Source: a phage
DNA length: 64,000 nucleotides
Reading direction: 5' to 3' (one strand)
Sequence record: PZ242158.1
This document shows, piece after piece, positions 1,172-61,854 of the stretch (its first letter is position 1; each line of letters begins with the position of its first letter). Below the pieces are notes generated by a model. That model was not told where the DNA came from. It saw nothing but the letters and a program-made list of their open reading frames with translations, and ran no database searches. Both the position numbers and the translations under genes were made by a program.

Positions 1172-3243
1172 TGGCAACAGCTGTTTTTAAACCTTACCGT
1201 GATTACTCTACAATGGCTGCACAGTTTCATTACCGAACAGTTCAGGATACTGCCGTTCCTGGTAGGGATTATAATCATGTTGAGGGCGATATAACTATCC
1301 CAGTTGGGGCAACAAGTATTGAGATCCCCGTGGAAATTGTTGACAAATTACCCAACAGGTTGCCAAGAAGCTTCTTTATGGAGTTTTCATCAAAATCCCA
1401 AGGGGTAATGATTGGAACACAAAGGGCGAAATGTACAATAGTTTCAGATGAGAATCTTGACAGGATATCTTGGGATACTGTTGAGGAGAGAATGTTTCAC
1501 CCAAGGTATTGGGTTACAACTACTCAGCAGACTGAAAGTACCTGTATTGTTGCAGATAACAACTGTTGTATTAACCGTTTAGTGTCAAGAACATATGGAG
1601 GTATGGCTGGGTGTATTTGGGAAACAGTTGACAAGTATGACCATTTCGGCATTGGGTTTGATGATCACTATGAGATGAGAAACACCAAGCTCTGGTTCAG
1701 AATGTCAATAACCAACGCCAGCAACTTCTCCACTCCTGAAAAGATGATTATGACTGTAGACCTTGTTGATGGCACAATCATCTATGTTCCTTTAGCTCAA
1801 TATGCTGTCAGCATCTCAGAGGATAAGAATGTTGCAGAAATTCATATTGATTTTGAGGACTGCGTCGGGATGGACCAGAACAACAACATGATGGGTGTTG
1901 ATCCTCGGCAGGTGAGAAGGATTTTAATACCACTCATGCCTAAAGACTGGGTAAGTAATAGCACAGACCCGAGAACGGAAAATGTAGAGTGTGAGTTGCG
2001 CCTAGATCTGCTTCAGCCAGACACAGGCTGGAAAATGATGCAACTTAACAATATTCAGGTTAAAGAGCACGACGTTGGGATCTGCACCGCATATGACGAT
2101 ATGTGGAACGTATCTCCTTTAAGGGTGTTGAACAATATCAAGCGTCTGGGCTATACCGGAACCATAAACCATTATGTTGGTATGAGTCATTATTATGACT
2201 ACACATGGTCAGGAACCCAATGGTCTATAAACAGAACAGGGGCGCTAAACGCTGCAGCTTATAAATGGCATGATGATTTTATGTACAATGCCAAACGACA
2301 TAACTTCGACGTTATGCAATCTGTAAGTTTTGAGCTTTTCAGCGATGCCTGCCCGTTGGAATGGACCCAAAGAGACTGGAACGATAACTACGCTAAAACA
2401 GGGTATACACCCTGTAGCTACCTCCTGTCTCCAACCATTGAAGAGGGTATGAATTTCCTTACTGCAGTATTTAAGAATTTTGCATCAGCCGCTATGAGAA
2501 ACAACCTGCCAGTGATTATGCAGGTTGGTGAACCGTGGTGGTGGTACAATACCGATACTCGTAGACCTTGTATTTATGATTACCCTACAAAACAGGCGTT
2601 TTATGATGAGACAGGCGAGTATGCATTAGATATTGGGACTATTGACGATCCTAAAACTGGCGGTGTTTACGATAAGTATGTAGCATTTTGTCGTGGTAAG
2701 CTTGGCGCTCGTATTGCGGCTATTTCAAAGGCAATAAAGGCACACGCTGCATCAGCTCAGATGACAGCTCTGCTGTTTTTCCCAACCATTATGGAAACCG
2801 AGCTTACGCAAAAGCTTAACCTTGCTGACCAATATAAAAAGGAAGCAGGTGCTCTTGATTTCTTCTGCACCGAGTGCTACGATTGGGTGATGCAGGGAGG
2901 TATTGAAAAGGCAAAAGAGTCTGTAAACATACCTATCGTTAAGTTAGGTTGGCAACCGTCTGAAATACAATACCTTGCAGGGTTCGTTCCTAGTAAAGAG
3001 CTTGCTCCGGTATATGGTTACGACCCAACCAGGAATTACCAAGAATTTTTATGGAGATGTATTTGCGGAAACATGGCAACTATAGAGTATAGATATCCTG
3101 AGGTAAAACAGTATGTGTGGGCATACCCGCAAGTAATGTCTGACAGCATCACTGTTACCGCTAGAGATTCTACCGTGCTTCATATGGGGCAGGTTGCTCT
3201 GAAAGGGTATGTAGAAGATGTTGTCCCGCCAGACTTCTCATAA
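1171..3243 (+). CDS. large virion structural protein (baseplate or tail associated, function unknown)
   Basis: 690-aa ORF translationally coupled to upstream gene, immediately 5' of the tail-fibre genes; no catalytic motif recognised. Confidence 0.45.
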   Translation: MATAVFKPYRDYSTMAAQFHYRTVQDTAVPGRDYNHVEGDITIPVGATSIEIPVEIVDKLPNRLPRSFFMEFSSKSQGVMIGTQRAKCTIVSDENLDRISWDTVEERMFHPRYWVTTTQQTESTCIVADNNCCINRLVSRTYGGMAGCIWETVDKYDHFGIGFDDHYEMRNTKLWFRMSITNASNFSTPEKMIMTVDLVDGTIIYVPLAQYAVSISEDKNVAEIHIDFEDCVGMDQNNNMMGVDPRQVRRILIPLMPKDWVSNSTDPRTENVECELRLDLLQPDTGWKMMQLNNIQVKEHDVGICTAYDDMWNVSPLRVLNNIKRLGYTGTINHYVGMSHYYDYTWSGTQWSINRTGALNAAAYKWHDDFMYNAKRHNFDVMQSVSFELFSDACPLEWTQRDWNDNYAKTGYTPCSYLLSPTIEEGMNFLTAVFKNFASAAMRNNLPVIMQVGEPWWWYNTDTRRPCIYDYPTKQAFYDETGEYALDIGTIDDPKTGGVYDKYVAFCRGKLGARIAAISKAIKAHAASAQMTALLFFPTIMETELTQKLNLADQYKKEAGALDFFCTECYDWVMQGGIEKAKESVNIPIVKLGWQPSEIQYLAGFVPSKELAPVYGYDPTRNYQEFLWRCICGNMATIEYRYPEVKQYVWAYPQVMSDSITVTARDSTVLHMGQVALKGYVEDVVPPDFS

Positions 3244-3255
3244 TCAGGAGATAAA

Positions 3256-4296
3256 ATGTCAAAACCTAGTTTTCCATTAGAGATTTGGGCAGAGGAGGAT
3301 CAGGTTCTGCCTAACACCCACAGACAGAACAGGCTACGCCCGATTGATGATTTGTGGAGAAAAGGTTGGGATCTTGGTCAAAAGCCCTCATGTGAAGAAC
3401 TTAACTATATTTTCAATATGCTCGGGACTTGGGCAAAATACATCGCTGACGAGCAGATTCCCGCTCAAGAAGGCCGTTATCTGGTACGTGATAATAACTT
3501 GAGTGATCTTTTGAACATTCCTGTTGCCCGTAGAAACCTTGGGATTATTACTAAGGAAGAGGCAGACGCCAGGTATGTAAAAGTTACAGGTGATACAATG
3601 ACAGGCCCATTGGGTTTGCAACGTATCAACTTTAAAGCTGCCGAGTCAGATAAGGCTTGGATAGAGACAACTATTGGCCCAGATAAGACAACTCTCGACT
3701 TTGGGTTAAGTGATAATACCGGGTCGTTTGATGATGGTGGTACATCTACAGTGGATGCGTTCCGTTGGAGATTCCAGCCAACTCAGCCGGATATTAATCC
3801 AGAGTTCACTTTGATGTACCTTAACGCGATCACGGCTAACCGTGCGCTGTTGAAAGTGGTAGGCAATGTTGAAGTTGTCGATAACATGAGGTGCAATAAC
3901 CTTACTATCAGCAATACAGCGACATTCACCAACTGTAATGTGGCTAGTCAGTTGACGGCTGGGTCAGTGTATGTTAATGGTGGTGCAAGTTGTGACAGTA
4001 TGGTTGTAAGAAGCCAGCACTGTGTTGTCGGTAACAGAAATGTGGTTCGCTCTGTGAACGGAGTGACGGCTAACGGTAACGGTGATGTAACGATCACTAT
4101 CCCGCAGACAGGTGTGCAAGACATCAGAATCGGTGCAAGACTTGTGGACGGAGTTTCTGAATCTCCAATCCGCAACGGCTACGTTGTCACAGGCTGGCAT
4201 TTCGGTGACAAAAAAGAGATGCGTGGTTCAACCTACTGGGCAGGACCTTTACAAAAACTTGTAAATGGTCAATGGATCACTGTTAATTATGCATAG
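3256..4296 (+). CDS. tail fibre protein, paralog A
   Basis: AGGAG SD; blocks LGLQRI, PDKTTLDF, FRWRFQP, LNAITANRA and C-terminus QKLVNGQWITVNYA shared with ORF 5308..6354; fibre-like Gly/Asn/Thr/Val-rich repeats. Confidence 0.6.
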   Translation: MSKPSFPLEIWAEEDQVLPNTHRQNRLRPIDDLWRKGWDLGQKPSCEELNYIFNMLGTWAKYIADEQIPAQEGRYLVRDNNLSDLLNIPVARRNLGIITKEEADARYVKVTGDTMTGPLGLQRINFKAAESDKAWIETTIGPDKTTLDFGLSDNTGSFDDGGTSTVDAFRWRFQPTQPDINPEFTLMYLNAITANRALLKVVGNVEVVDNMRCNNLTISNTATFTNCNVASQLTAGSVYVNGGASCDSMVVRSQHCVVGNRNVVRSVNGVTANGNGDVTITIPQTGVQDIRIGARLVDGVSESPIRNGYVVTGWHFGDKKEMRGSTYWAGPLQKLVNGQWITVNYA

Positions 4297-57653: not shown

Positions 57654-57718
57654 TACAACAAGGTGCACGGTCAGGGGCTTAAAGCCCCTTGATCACATAA
57701 AAATTATGCTATCCCTGG

Positions 57719-57747
57719 TTGACAGGGATCGGCAGTTTTGCTATATT
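57719..57747 (+). promoter_or_regulatory. sigma70-like early promoter
   Basis: TTGACA, 17 nt, TATATT. Confidence 0.55.
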
Positions 57748-57796
57748 CTTTTTTGAAGGGAAGTTGTAAGAAAATTAACTAAGAGGTAAAAACACC

Positions 57797-58216
57797 ATGA
57801 ACATTAAATCTAATAATCCGGCATATAGCTTTGATAACGCTTTTTGTCACGGTCCGGCGGCGAAAGGATTCGAAATCGATGGTAAACTAATTATTGTCAA
57901 TGTTGACGGGGAAGAGGTTGCAGTATATCCGGTGGCAGACGTAAAAAGCCGTTTACAATGCCGCATGGATGTTACCGCCTATCAGCTTGATCCGGTCCGC
58001 ATAGTTGCCCTGGTCCTGGAAGAAGAAATTAAAGCCATGCACCATAGCAACAGGTTTATTGGTGACGCTCAGGATAATATGAAGGTGTGCCGCCATAAAG
58101 TTAATGAAGTGCTTAAAGAGTACGGCTATAAAGATCTTATGATCAAACGTGATGAAAAATTCCGGTACCGTAACGACCTGGCAAATCGGATTTTTGAAAT
58201 ATACGAATCATTATAA
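57797..58216 (+). CDS. hypothetical protein
   Basis: 139-aa ORF, SD TAAGAGGTAAAAA. Confidence 0.45.
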   Translation: MNIKSNNPAYSFDNAFCHGPAAKGFEIDGKLIIVNVDGEEVAVYPVADVKSRLQCRMDVTAYQLDPVRIVALVLEEEIKAMHHSNRFIGDAQDNMKVCRHKVNEVLKEYGYKDLMIKRDEKFRYRNDLANRIFEIYESL

Positions 58217-58234
58217 TTTTTTAACTGAATTATC

Positions 58235-58259
58235 AAGGGGCTTAGGTCCCTTTCTTTTT
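58235..58259 (+). terminator. intrinsic terminator ending the + strand early array
   Basis: AAGGGGC-ttag-GTCCCTT + TCTTTTT. Confidence 0.5.
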
Positions 58260-58870
58260 GTCTGCTCTTCCTCCCTACCATAAACGGCCCTACCTGGCAA
58301 GTGGAATAATTGACGAGCCATCAATCCCACACACTGTACAAATATACATGTAAAATAACTATTGCATAACCTTTCATTGTGTGGTAGCGGTGCTATTTTT
58401 ACCCGTTTTCCTTCCAAAATTGCACGTAATGCAGCTATTGCACAAAATTTAACCTGATGCGCATCTTCAATATCTTGTCAACAACTAAAAATCTTTATAA
58501 GTCATACACTTACACAAACCAAAAAGCGTGTTCTACGTGAAAAATCGAGTATAACTATAGCCGACAGATCTCAGAATTTACGTACGCTCACCATTCTATA
58601 GCCTGCTAAGTATTTATTCCGACCATAGAATAACAGAATAGTCAATACCTGCATAAAATAATTATTCGTTTAAATTGCATAACATAAATCAGCTCAGGTG
58701 TCAACATTTTTCGTAAACAGTCTGAAATTGTCACGGCAAGTTATCATAATCAGAGAAATCTTTAGTCGTCTAATGTTTACTGTACGTTACTATACTAACT
58801 GGAATCATTAGATGACTAATAGAAAGATAAGAAATAATTAACAATACAATTATTTTATCTGTAACAATAA

Positions 58871-59044
58871 GGCAACTATGCAAACGAATGGCATGGCGCG
58901 ACGGAGTCGCGACATAATATAAAAGCAGTAACCATCACCCCCGTGATAGTTTGTCTGCAATCTATTAATCAGATCATAGTTGCCTTGTATTTAGTTAATC
59001 ATGACATAACAAGCAAGGCAACTATAGATCTTCTAATAGTTGCC
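58871..59044. repeat. array of inverted 9-bp half-sites GGCAACTAT/ATAGTTGCC (operator- or centromere-like)
   Basis: Half-sites at 58871 (+), 58976 (-), 59017 (+), 59036 (-); the last pair forms a palindrome with a 10-bp spacer; 20-mer ATGCAAACGAATGGCATGGC repeated at 58878 and 59150. Confidence 0.45.
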
Positions 59045-59282
59045 CTGCTTTTATATTATGTCATATATTATTAACTTGTTAATTGTTAGTCAGTCAAATC
59101 AACAGCGTTATCATTTCAGTCTTTATTGTTGTTGATCGTTATTGTTATCATGCAAACGAATGGCATGGCTTATCATCTCTGTATAAACAGTTTATGCGTG
59201 AACAGTGAGGCATGCAATAGTAACAATTGTTATTGTGTCATCATGTCAAGGGTAAAGTGTCATAGTATGTCAGACATGTTTT

Positions 59283-59716
59283 TCCCCTCTTTGTCAAGTG
59301 CTGCATGAAAAAATTTACAAGCTGGTATGGTAGCATTTTTGCGGCCTTGTTTACATTCAGGAGTGTATGTATAATCCTTGTTGTGTGGGCGTTTATACGT
59401 CTGGACGGTCAGAAGTCTGCAGGTTAATATCTAATCTATTGGCTGCTAACTATATCCCACACAAATGATAAGAAATATAATTGTTATATGCGTAAACTGT
59501 AACTCATGTTATCAATCCCTGTATGTATCGCCAGTGGTGCGCATAATGGGTATTATGTTAAATTGCCCGTAATGATAACAGTTCTCACAATGATAGGTAT
59601 TCTCATTCATCCACACAAAATAGGTTGCAAATGTTGTGCCACTGTGTGAACGGCCTGGCCTATTAATTTCTCTCACTGCCTCGATATTTGAGAATTGTTA
59701 TAAGAATGAGAAGTAT
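59283..59716. repeat. 434-bp perfect direct repeat, copy 1
   Basis: Identical by eye to 59843..60276 over the full 434 bp; contains a promoter-like TTGTTT, 17 nt, TATAAT. Confidence 0.8.
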
Positions 59717-59842
59717 CCATGTTTATATTACATCTACTTGGTTCAGAACCAAAATGCGCGAAAGCGTTTCACGATAACTAGCGACCACGGTCTGTTCCCT
59801 GGCGGCCATACGGCTTCTACTGAACGCAGCAGAGGGCGATAA

Positions 59843-60276
59843 TCCCCTCTTTGTCAAGTGCTGCATGAAAAAATTTACAAGCTGGTATGGTAGCATTTTT
59901 GCGGCCTTGTTTACATTCAGGAGTGTATGTATAATCCTTGTTGTGTGGGCGTTTATACGTCTGGACGGTCAGAAGTCTGCAGGTTAATATCTAATCTATT
60001 GGCTGCTAACTATATCCCACACAAATGATAAGAAATATAATTGTTATATGCGTAAACTGTAACTCATGTTATCAATCCCTGTATGTATCGCCAGTGGTGC
60101 GCATAATGGGTATTATGTTAAATTGCCCGTAATGATAACAGTTCTCACAATGATAGGTATTCTCATTCATCCACACAAAATAGGTTGCAAATGTTGTGCC
60201 ACTGTGTGAACGGCCTGGCCTATTAATTTCTCTCACTGCCTCGATATTTGAGAATTGTTATAAGAATGAGAAGTAT
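59843..60276. repeat. 434-bp perfect direct repeat, copy 2
   Basis: Offset exactly 560 bp from copy 1, separated by a unique 126-bp spacer (59717..59842). Confidence 0.8.
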
Positions 60277-61304
60277 TCCCATTCCGTCCGCCTGGCAGCG
60301 CTCCTGTAGGTCCTGCAAGGACTCTAGCTTTCAGCTAGACCCTTCGGGCCTCCCTACAGGTCAGGTCAAAATCGTGGTAGAATTGGGCCTATTCAGATAT
60401 TTCTGGCTGACTCTTCAGGTCTGTGTGGGAAAAGCCAACCTCTCCGGCGGGGCAGGGGGAGGTCAATTAAAAAATTTACGTGGTGTATGAAGCGCTCTTC
60501 AGGTAAGGCAGGTATTATGGGATGAAACCCTCTTCAGGCAATGATATTTGTGGGTGTGATATTTGCTGGAAAGCCAGATATGACGGGACTCCCGGCGGGG
60601 CAGGGGTAGTACAGACAGGGAAAATATGAGAATGTAGTTGGGGAAATTGATCAGACAGGTAGAGTATGGAATATGTTACAAGTATGTTAAATATGGAGGT
60701 TGAATATCTGTAGGATTTGTGTGTAAAATCAAAGACTTAAGGGGTGTTGTGATATTTTCTATAAATAATTCAAGTTTAATAGGTGATATTTGTCTCTATC
60801 CGCTTTGTGTGGTAAACAGATTCAGATGAGATTGGTTTACAAGTGTATACATAATATACAAATTAAAGATACAAGAAACCCCCCATCCCCCTTCGGCTAC
60901 CATTCACCTTTTCCTCTGACTGGTACTTAAACACTTATTCAGACTCTTCAGGTTATCACCCATATATCATATGGCAGTGACTGGTGTCCTCCGGCCCCTC
61001 TTTCGTCACCCGTCCGCTTCGCCATGCTAATGCCATAGCCAATGGTTCGGTTGTTCACCCTGTTCACTCAGGTGTATCTCCATACCCCTTCAAACCGAAG
61101 AGAACAGAAAACCCGAATTACTCGGTAAAAGAAAAGAGAAGAACTTAATTTTATCAGGATAGGCAAGAATGTCAAGGCATGACTGCTCACTAAACAAGCA
61201 AACAGTCATGTGTGGGAGGTAAGTGATTGTGGTGGTGGGAAATTTAGTTGAAAGATGTGTTATAGGTGCGCTTCCAGCACTTTAGCCGGGCAGCTAATTG
61301 TGTG

Positions 61305-61520
61305 TCAGTCCAGTGGTTCATCACCTACTTCACTGAAATCAATGTTCATGGTCTCCTCCCAACCATCAATCTCAGCACCAGAGTAGAGATCTTTAGGACT
61401 TACTCCCAAAGCATCAGCAACAGAGTCCATATTTAACACCTCTGGCAGGTATGATTCATCGAATTCAAGGTAAATCAGGCCACGAGTGTTGTCAGCTCCA
61501 CCAAATATTTCTATCTTCAT
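61305..61520 (-). CDS. hypothetical acidic protein
   Basis: 71-aa ORF, SD on - strand (GGAGA); first gene of the - strand small-gene block. Confidence 0.4.
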   Translation of the reverse strand: MKIEIFGGADNTRGLIYLEFDESYLPEVLNMDSVADALGVSPKDLYSGAEIDGWEETMNIDFSEVGDEPLD

Positions 61521-61641
61521 GAAATCTCCTCTGGAAATGAGAGTGTGAACAGGGTTTTATACGTTCCGATGCACAGGAATTATGCACGTTTGCCTCTTCA
61601 GGCCATGCTTTAGCATGAGGAACCTGTGTGGGCTCGGTGCT

Positions 61642-61854
61642 TCATAGTCTACCACCCCTGAACTCTTCGTGCTCAGGCATAATAGAGAACCAGATATCTA
61701 CGATGTCTTCCCACGTTAGGTCATCAGCCTCAGGATCTACCTGGAGCGAAGATGGAGAATCTTCAGAATCTAAGTTTTCCTCTTTCACTGGCTCAGCCAA
61801 GGGACATATAGTCACTCCTTTGGATGTCTCTTCAGATGCATGTGTGTTTATCAT
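61642..61854 (-). CDS. hypothetical acidic protein (weak)
   Basis: 70-aa ORF, no clear SD; an overlapping + strand ORF (61628..61867) is equally plausible by eye. Confidence 0.25.
   Translation of the reverse strand: MINTHASEETSKGVTICPLAEPVKEENLDSEDSPSSLQVDPEADDLTWEDIVDIWFSIMPEHEEFRGGRL

Follow-up and report, generated by a model that had tools for sequence, protein, structure and literature searches.

Phages that package their DNA in the manner of T7 possess repeats at the ends of a linear genome; the end repeats recombine or anneal, which yields concatemers with one direct terminal repeat (DTR) per junction, and the terminase cuts these at fixed sites, the repeat being duplicated at packaging. 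The closest described counterparts of the locus analyzed here are the DTRs of the genus Vequintavirus (rV5-like coliphages), for which terminal repeats of 459 bp in Gotham (PMC7471380) and of 458 bp in EdH4 and HdK5 (PMC6563267) were reported. The first and last 459 bases of the sequence records are identical in Gotham as well as in EdH4, and the Gotham record carries an annotated repeat_region at 1-459 and 136567-137025. Moreover, the records of four 'bov' phages, which come from a third laboratory, share their first base with those of Gotham and EdH4. Short-DTR genomes with fixed ends are already known for Vequintavirus, and the biology described here adds nothing new in this respect. One 2026 paper inferred headful packaging for another vequintavirus using PhageTerm (PMC13211470), a result at odds with the fixed ends that two further groups reported and with the common start of the sequence records. 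The literature that we found on vequintavirus packaging gives repeat lengths and nothing mechanistic. Vequintaviruses resemble phages with T7-type packaging in their repeat of a few hundred bp, their fixed ends and the single copy expected at each concatemer junction. By this analogy, we infer that the DTRs of vequintaviruses would let the genome ends recombine or anneal into concatemers with one DTR per junction, that the terminase would cut at fixed sites and that the repeat would be duplicated during packaging. Replicating DNA would then be expected to hold one DTR copy at the locus, and virions two copies, one at each end and separated by ~137 kb. At either genome end the gene block points outwards, with ~1 kb of non-coding DNA inside each repeat.

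The locus lies in a stretch of 64,000 nucleotides of record PZ242158.1 (the window, to which all coordinates refer unless another record is named). A megablast search with 58400-61400 retrieved 122 phage records at 90-99% identity, essentially all of them Vequintavirus coliphages, and the window is that of a Vequintavirus phage; among the best 30 of these 122 records, 2.35-2.53 kb cover the 3,001-base query. Pfam matches elsewhere in the window, among others to a family A DNA polymerase, a DnaB-like helicase and a PIF1-like helicase, fit a large myovirus. About 19 unannotated records deposited as 'Campylobacter phage' (MG0656xx, host C. jejuni) are 90-94% identical to this region, and their attribution to a Campylobacter host looks doubtful. 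Plus-strand ORFs stop at 58216 and minus-strand ORFs start at 61520-61305, leaving ~3.1 kb between them (58217-61304) with no ORF annotated consistently in the relatives; this convergent, ORF-poor setting is as the initial annotation of the window had described it. Repeat search and direct string comparison revealed that 59283-59716 is 100% identical to 59843-60276 over exactly 434 bp, and the string comparison found no added match beyond either edge. The period, start to start, is 560 bp (1.78 units), and the spacer between the copies (59717-59842, 126 bp) is unique. Two identical 434-bp copies around a 126-bp spacer, amounting to 1.78 copies of a 560-bp unit, had been noted before, and this description proved exact. 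A perfect repeat of such length cannot have arisen by chance. The locus is composed of the following elements:

58217-59272, no strand assigned: non-coding flank L, which adjoins the right genome end; AT-rich (34% GC), with short repeats and inverted repeats.
59273-59716, no strand assigned: right-end DTR copy (copy 1), which joins flank L; its exact-repeat part is 59283-59716, and it lacks the last 16 nt distally.
59717-59842, minus strand: spacer, a garbled Oxford Nanopore (ONT) rapid-barcoding adapter, colinear with the Y-adapter top strand, barcode flank, BC08 and MuA end.
59843-60292, no strand assigned: left-end DTR copy (copy 2), which joins flank R and is missing the first 10 nt; exact repeat over 59843-60276.
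60293-61304, no strand assigned: non-coding flank R, immediately interior to the left genome end, with a hairpin cluster (60300-60362) and a conserved CTCTTCAGG array.

Comparison with the sister phages assigns both copies to the terminal repeat. A composite of 59273-59716 and 60277-60292 (460 bp) aligned from one end to the other with the 459-bp DTRs of both Gotham and EdH4, at an identity of 95.4%. Copy 1 aligns throughout to the DTR annotated in Gotham (reverse strand of record positions 1-459). In Gotham and EdH4, the inner limit of the DTR maps to 59273, and position 60292 matches the first base of the EdH4, Gotham and bov10K2 records; reverse-complemented, 60253-60292 is identical to bases 1-40 of the EdH4 record at all 40 positions. 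Placed on the window, the DTR of Gotham and EdH4 extends in copy 1 from 59273 (GACATGTTTT…) to 16 nt past 59716, and in copy 2 from 10 nt before 59843 to 60292 (…CCGTCCGCC), its last 16 nt being present in the left-end copy as 60277-60292. Because the 434-bp repeat is nested within these aligned boundaries, it is, as read from the alignment, the DTR minus its outermost 10 and 16 nt, the very bases replaced by the spacer. The real feature of this locus is, on the same comparison, a DTR of ~460 bp, equivalent to 59273 through 60292. It shares with the DTRs of Gotham (459 bp), EdH4 and HdK5 (458/459 bp) an identity of 95% over the whole length, the same boundaries, a nearly equal length (460 vs. 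459 bp) and the same genomic position between two outward-pointing gene blocks. In the Gotham and EdH4 records, however, the copies lie at both ends of a linear record, whereas here they are found 126 bp apart inside the record, each with an outer edge that is 10 or 16 nt short and with an adapter bridge between them.

Blastn searches with the spacer found no match among 50,697 phage records and none among 5,426 complete E. coli genomes; an exact scan of IMG/VR contigs for a 50-mer taken from it was likewise negative. These results disfavour a mobile element or host DNA. Since the spacer matched neither phage nor E. coli sequences, the idea of an adapter was taken up. The expected read head consists of the Y-adapter top strand, the flank GCTTGGGTGTTTAACC, a 24-nt barcode and the MuA transposon end GTTTTCGCATTTATCGTGAAACGCTTTCGCGTTTTTCGTGCGCCGCTTCA. 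Read on the minus strand, the spacer is TTATCGCCCTCTGCTGCGTTCAGTAGAAGCC…CCAGGGAACAGACC…TTATCGTGAAACGCTTTCGCG…, and it aligns to the adapter with a local score of 50 (500 shuffles: 14.9 ± 2.5, maximum 26, i.e., ~14 sd) and a global score of 31 (shuffles: 11.3 ± 2.8, maximum 21.5). Three blocks can be distinguished:

59757-59777, minus strand: exact 21-mer of the MuA transposon end, TTATCGTGAAACGCTTTCGCG, the ONT rapid-kit flank (blastn-short, E 1.3e-6).
59789-59801, minus strand: barcode-08-like block CAGGGAACAGACC, 12/13 bases of TTCAGGGAACAAACCAAGTTACGT, upstream of the Mu end, where a genuine read would carry it.
59819-59826, minus strand: CGTTCAGT, located 5'-most in the adapter remnant, which weakly resembles the Y-adapter top strand (…CTTCGTTCAGTTACG…) and is not significant alone.

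The Mu 21-mer is the sole significant adapter match in the 64-kb window and alone among the three blocks is individually significant, the barcode and Y-adapter blocks being degraded. BC08 ranked top among the 12 barcodes compared, the only ones set against the spacer (score 21 vs. 9-16), and the 3' half of the barcode is degraded. Within the region of the flank GCTTGGGTGTTTAACC and the Y-adapter, just CGTTCAGT and scattered matches were seen, which are colinear in the global alignment and not individually significant. For 59717-59756, the 40 nt that separate the Mu 21-mer from copy 1, no convincing alignment was obtained with the sequence expected there, namely the remainder of the Mu end and the final 16 nt of the DTR. 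A second adapter in the opposite orientation (a palindromic double adapter) was rejected, the score of the plus-strand spacer (20) being inside the shuffle range. Our analyses identify the spacer, by its base sequence, as a remnant of a Nanopore rapid-barcoding adapter. The presence of an adapter between the copies implies that molecules or contigs ended at that point. Transposase-based rapid kits attach no adapter to natural DNA ends; hence, an adapter ~16 nt from a physical end would have to come from a MuA insertion close to the terminus, from a chimeric read or from a garbled consensus.

Several parts of this construct are available in print: the Mu-end 21-mer as a Mu transposase loading oligo (PMC5517011), the bc08 sequence (PMC5534310) and the Y-adapter sequence (PMC9965538), while ONT rapid kits were reported to use MuA cargo, GCTTGGGTGTTTAACC being the barcode flank of the SQK-RBK114 cargo (bioRxiv 10.64898/2026.04.18.719403). 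For a phage assembled with Flye, Nanopore adapters remaining at the termini were also described, and were trimmed by hand (PMC9965538). Our case resembles the latter in that adapter-derived sequence stands at a former contig terminus in read-head orientation (Y-adapter, barcode flank, barcode, MuA end, genome), but differs from it in that the residue was left untrimmed, was buried by the joining of ends and is heavily degraded apart from 21 nt.

The state of the locus in the relatives is simpler. Pairwise BLAST placed both 58400-59716 and 59843-61400 on one continuous segment of navn, rV5_ev147 and HeinrichReichert, which show the order L–A–R, i.e., the repeat (A) once between the two flanks and no counterpart of the spacer; these three assemblies thus contain a single DTR copy per junction. 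A different arrangement was found in Shigella phage CM1 (MK962749.1), where the locus 2543-3588 is a perfect 2.0-copy tandem of 523 bp, made up of 64 nt of the L flank and the 459-bp DTR, with its junction exactly at the conserved physical end …CCGTCCGCC. CM1 shares with our record an internal, perfect two-copy tandem over the DTR at the same locus, but its 523-bp tandem is clean, without adapter and without truncation. The 64-bp segment matched none of the Illumina TruSeq, Nextera or ONT adapters and represents the local L flank, and its origin from an adapter was therefore rejected. The internal DTR–DTR tandem of CM1, with its junction at …CCGTCCGCC, indicates that rotated linear records exist in the genus; it is probably the same kind of linear-record rotation, in this case without an adapter, or else the terminal repeat of CM1 may be longer (523 bp).

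Collectively, these observations lead us to consider it very probable that the two copies are the known terminal repeats of an rV5-like coliphage, juxtaposed through an adapter remnant during assembly or record rotation, and not a product of phage biology. The order of bioinformatic steps, which we infer, may have been as follows. The phage would package a linear genome with fixed ends and a ~460-bp DTR reaching from GACATGTTTT… at 59273 to …CCGTCCGCC at 60292. Assembly of Nanopore rapid-barcoding reads (barcode 08) would have given a linear contig flanked on both sides by the DTR, of which one end kept an untrimmed read-head adapter and the other stopped ~10 nt short of the physical terminus. 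The contig ends would then have been joined head to tail, either by rotating the contig, as if it were circular, to the start of a reference, or through a chimeric read by which the assembler bridged them; bridging of this kind would give the same result as rotation. The presumed outcome is the arrangement L–DTR(−16)–adapter–DTR(−10)–R within the record; its two copies would be identical because both represent one terminal repeat, and the reads used to polish them were probably the same. What is observed along the minus strand is flank R, a DTR copy ending 10 nt before the left end, the read-head adapter, a DTR copy beginning ~16 nt inside the right end and flank L, and this order is the product expected from head-to-tail joining and rotation of a linear long-read contig. 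Moreover, the Mu end, which is the genomic side of the adapter, points into copy 1, as it should if a read or contig of the minus strand began at the right genome end. A check for long-read indel damage found the long ORFs (1878, 809, 692, and 690 aa) intact and a coding density of 87%; the intact long ORFs indicate that the assembly was well polished, which agrees with the identity of the copies.

Other explanations have to be weighed against this. The copies could represent an arbitrary overlap between the ends of a circular or permuted contig, from a phage that has no fixed ends, with an untrimmed adapter left at the point of rotation. An adapter remnant fits such an origin equally well, rapid-kit adapters are not attached to natural DNA ends, and headful packaging has been inferred with PhageTerm for a vequintavirus (PMC13211470); we nevertheless leave this explanation only a slim chance, given that the boundaries of the repeat lie 10 and 16 nt inside the independently determined DTR ends of Gotham and EdH4, which are common to the four bov record starts, a coincidence of ~1 in 10^7 in a 137-kb genome. 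A genuine tandem duplication, produced by unequal recombination or replication slippage and accompanied by a foreign 126-bp insert, with the identity of the copies explained by recency or gene conversion, appears to us very improbable. The repeat is indeed perfect and located in a non-coding, recombination-tolerant region, and CM1 likewise exhibits a tandem at this locus. A simple duplication event would, however, give two full units, while we observe 1.78 units in the arrangement A–S–A with a unique spacer (S) that is adapter-like and has no match in the phage or E. coli genomes searched; furthermore, the boundaries coincide with known physical ends, and about 120 relatives hold a single copy.

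We assign an almost negligible probability to a functional internal repeat, whether it acts as a replication origin, duplicates a promoter or regulatory module, or encodes a pair of non-coding RNAs. Such a role would suit a non-coding region that is AT-rich on one side and has many short repeats, as well as the excess of promoter-like sites in 57700-61700 (23 vs. 11.4 ± 3.3 after shuffling), but the relatives have one copy, and the second copy is present here solely through the adapter-bridged join. In addition, ARAGORN found no tRNA in the 64-kb window, and no Rfam family was detected there at gathering thresholds. The promoter TTGTTT-17-TATAAT, to which the initial annotation had drawn attention, is present as letters; it fails the −35 criterion of the sigma-70 consensus scan and is unlisted in its output, the DTR having only weak 9-of-12 sites. 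Among the interpretations offered in the same annotation, an assembly artefact and a genome terminus turn out to apply jointly: the side-by-side placement and the spacer, a sequencing adapter, come from record building, whereas the copies are the two terminal repeats of the virion DNA, the repeat being bounded 10 and 16 nt within the physical ends published for sister phages. Neither recent duplication nor ongoing gene conversion is supported, and we found nothing in favour of a replication origin.

As an internal tandem, the repeat does not exist in the phage; what the record shows is the genus-typical DTR entered twice, with sequencing adapter as the bridge. The record consequently holds 560 bases that are absent from that place in the phage, namely the 126-bp adapter and a second, truncated DTR copy, and needs correction. 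If retained, they would mislead annotation, comparisons of genome length and synteny, and the prediction of repeats or origins. The figure of 3 kb given for the ORF-poor gap counts the 560 extra bases; the real gap is ~2.5 kb, like that of the relatives. ORFs 59636-59842 and 59723-59896, which cross adapter sequence, exemplify the annotation trap. At the same time, the junction would place the physical genome ends to within ~10-16 nt without recourse to reads, in agreement with the published repeats of 458/459 bp. The program-made list includes three small ORFs here, 59636-59842 (+), 59723-59896 (−) and 60248-60490 (+), of 68, 57, and 80 aa, all of which cross adapter sequence or a repeat boundary. 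In the homologous non-coding region, small 'hypothetical proteins' are annotated in rV5_ev147 and none in the BASEL record. The small ORFs of the repeat/adapter stretch are likely over-calls.

The flanking non-coding DNA contains further elements. In flank L, the segment 58820-59260 (34% GC) carries ATAGTTGCC boxes in both orientations (58871, 58976, 59017, and 59036), a perfect 18-nt inverted repeat (58911-58928/59045-59062) and an exact 20-nt direct repeat, ATGCAAACGAATGGCATGGC, at 58878 and 59150. By its sequence features, the anatomy of this flank looks like that of an origin or operator. An iteron-type origin, which would have several binding-site repeats of about 10-25 bp beside an AT-rich unwinding element, was rejected for the 434-bp repeat, which is not an iteron array; the short repeats of flank L stand apart from it. 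On the other side, CTCTTCAGG boxes occur on the plus strand at 60411, 60495, 60530, 60944, and 61594, within 1.2 kb inside the left terminal repeat; four of them lie 120-660 bp from the DTR edge and the fifth ~1.3 kb away, and just one further copy was found in the 64 kb (minus strand, 30391). Conservation of all five boxes, flanks included, was seen in navn, rV5_ev147, HeinrichReichert, Gotham, and EdH4. Candidate roles are those of terminase/pac boxes or of a phage-specific promoter or terminator motif. Interleaved with them is a G-rich box, CCGGCGGGGCAGGGG(G/T)AG, present twice (60444-60461 and 60592-60609) at a distance of 148 bp.

The elements of both flanks could, to judge from their motifs, serve as candidate packaging, promoter or origin elements. 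We tentatively suggest, though we consider it rather unlikely, that the CTCTTCAGG boxes, the paired CCGGCGGGGCAGGGG boxes and the hairpin cluster might constitute an undescribed vequintavirus packaging module for terminase recognition and cleavage; if so, the adapter-bridged junction would provide a base-level marker of the cut sites. The hairpin cluster (60300-60362) is GC-rich and abuts the inner edge of the terminal repeat, 60277-60380 having a minimum free energy of −38.7 kcal/mol (z = −3.4). In comparison with navn, rV5_ev147, and HeinrichReichert, a loop TTTCA stands for TGAAA and CCTACAGG for CCTGTAGG, differences that look like small hairpin inversions. EdH4 and Gotham exhibit indels in the cluster, which is the most variable spot of an otherwise 95%-conserved region.
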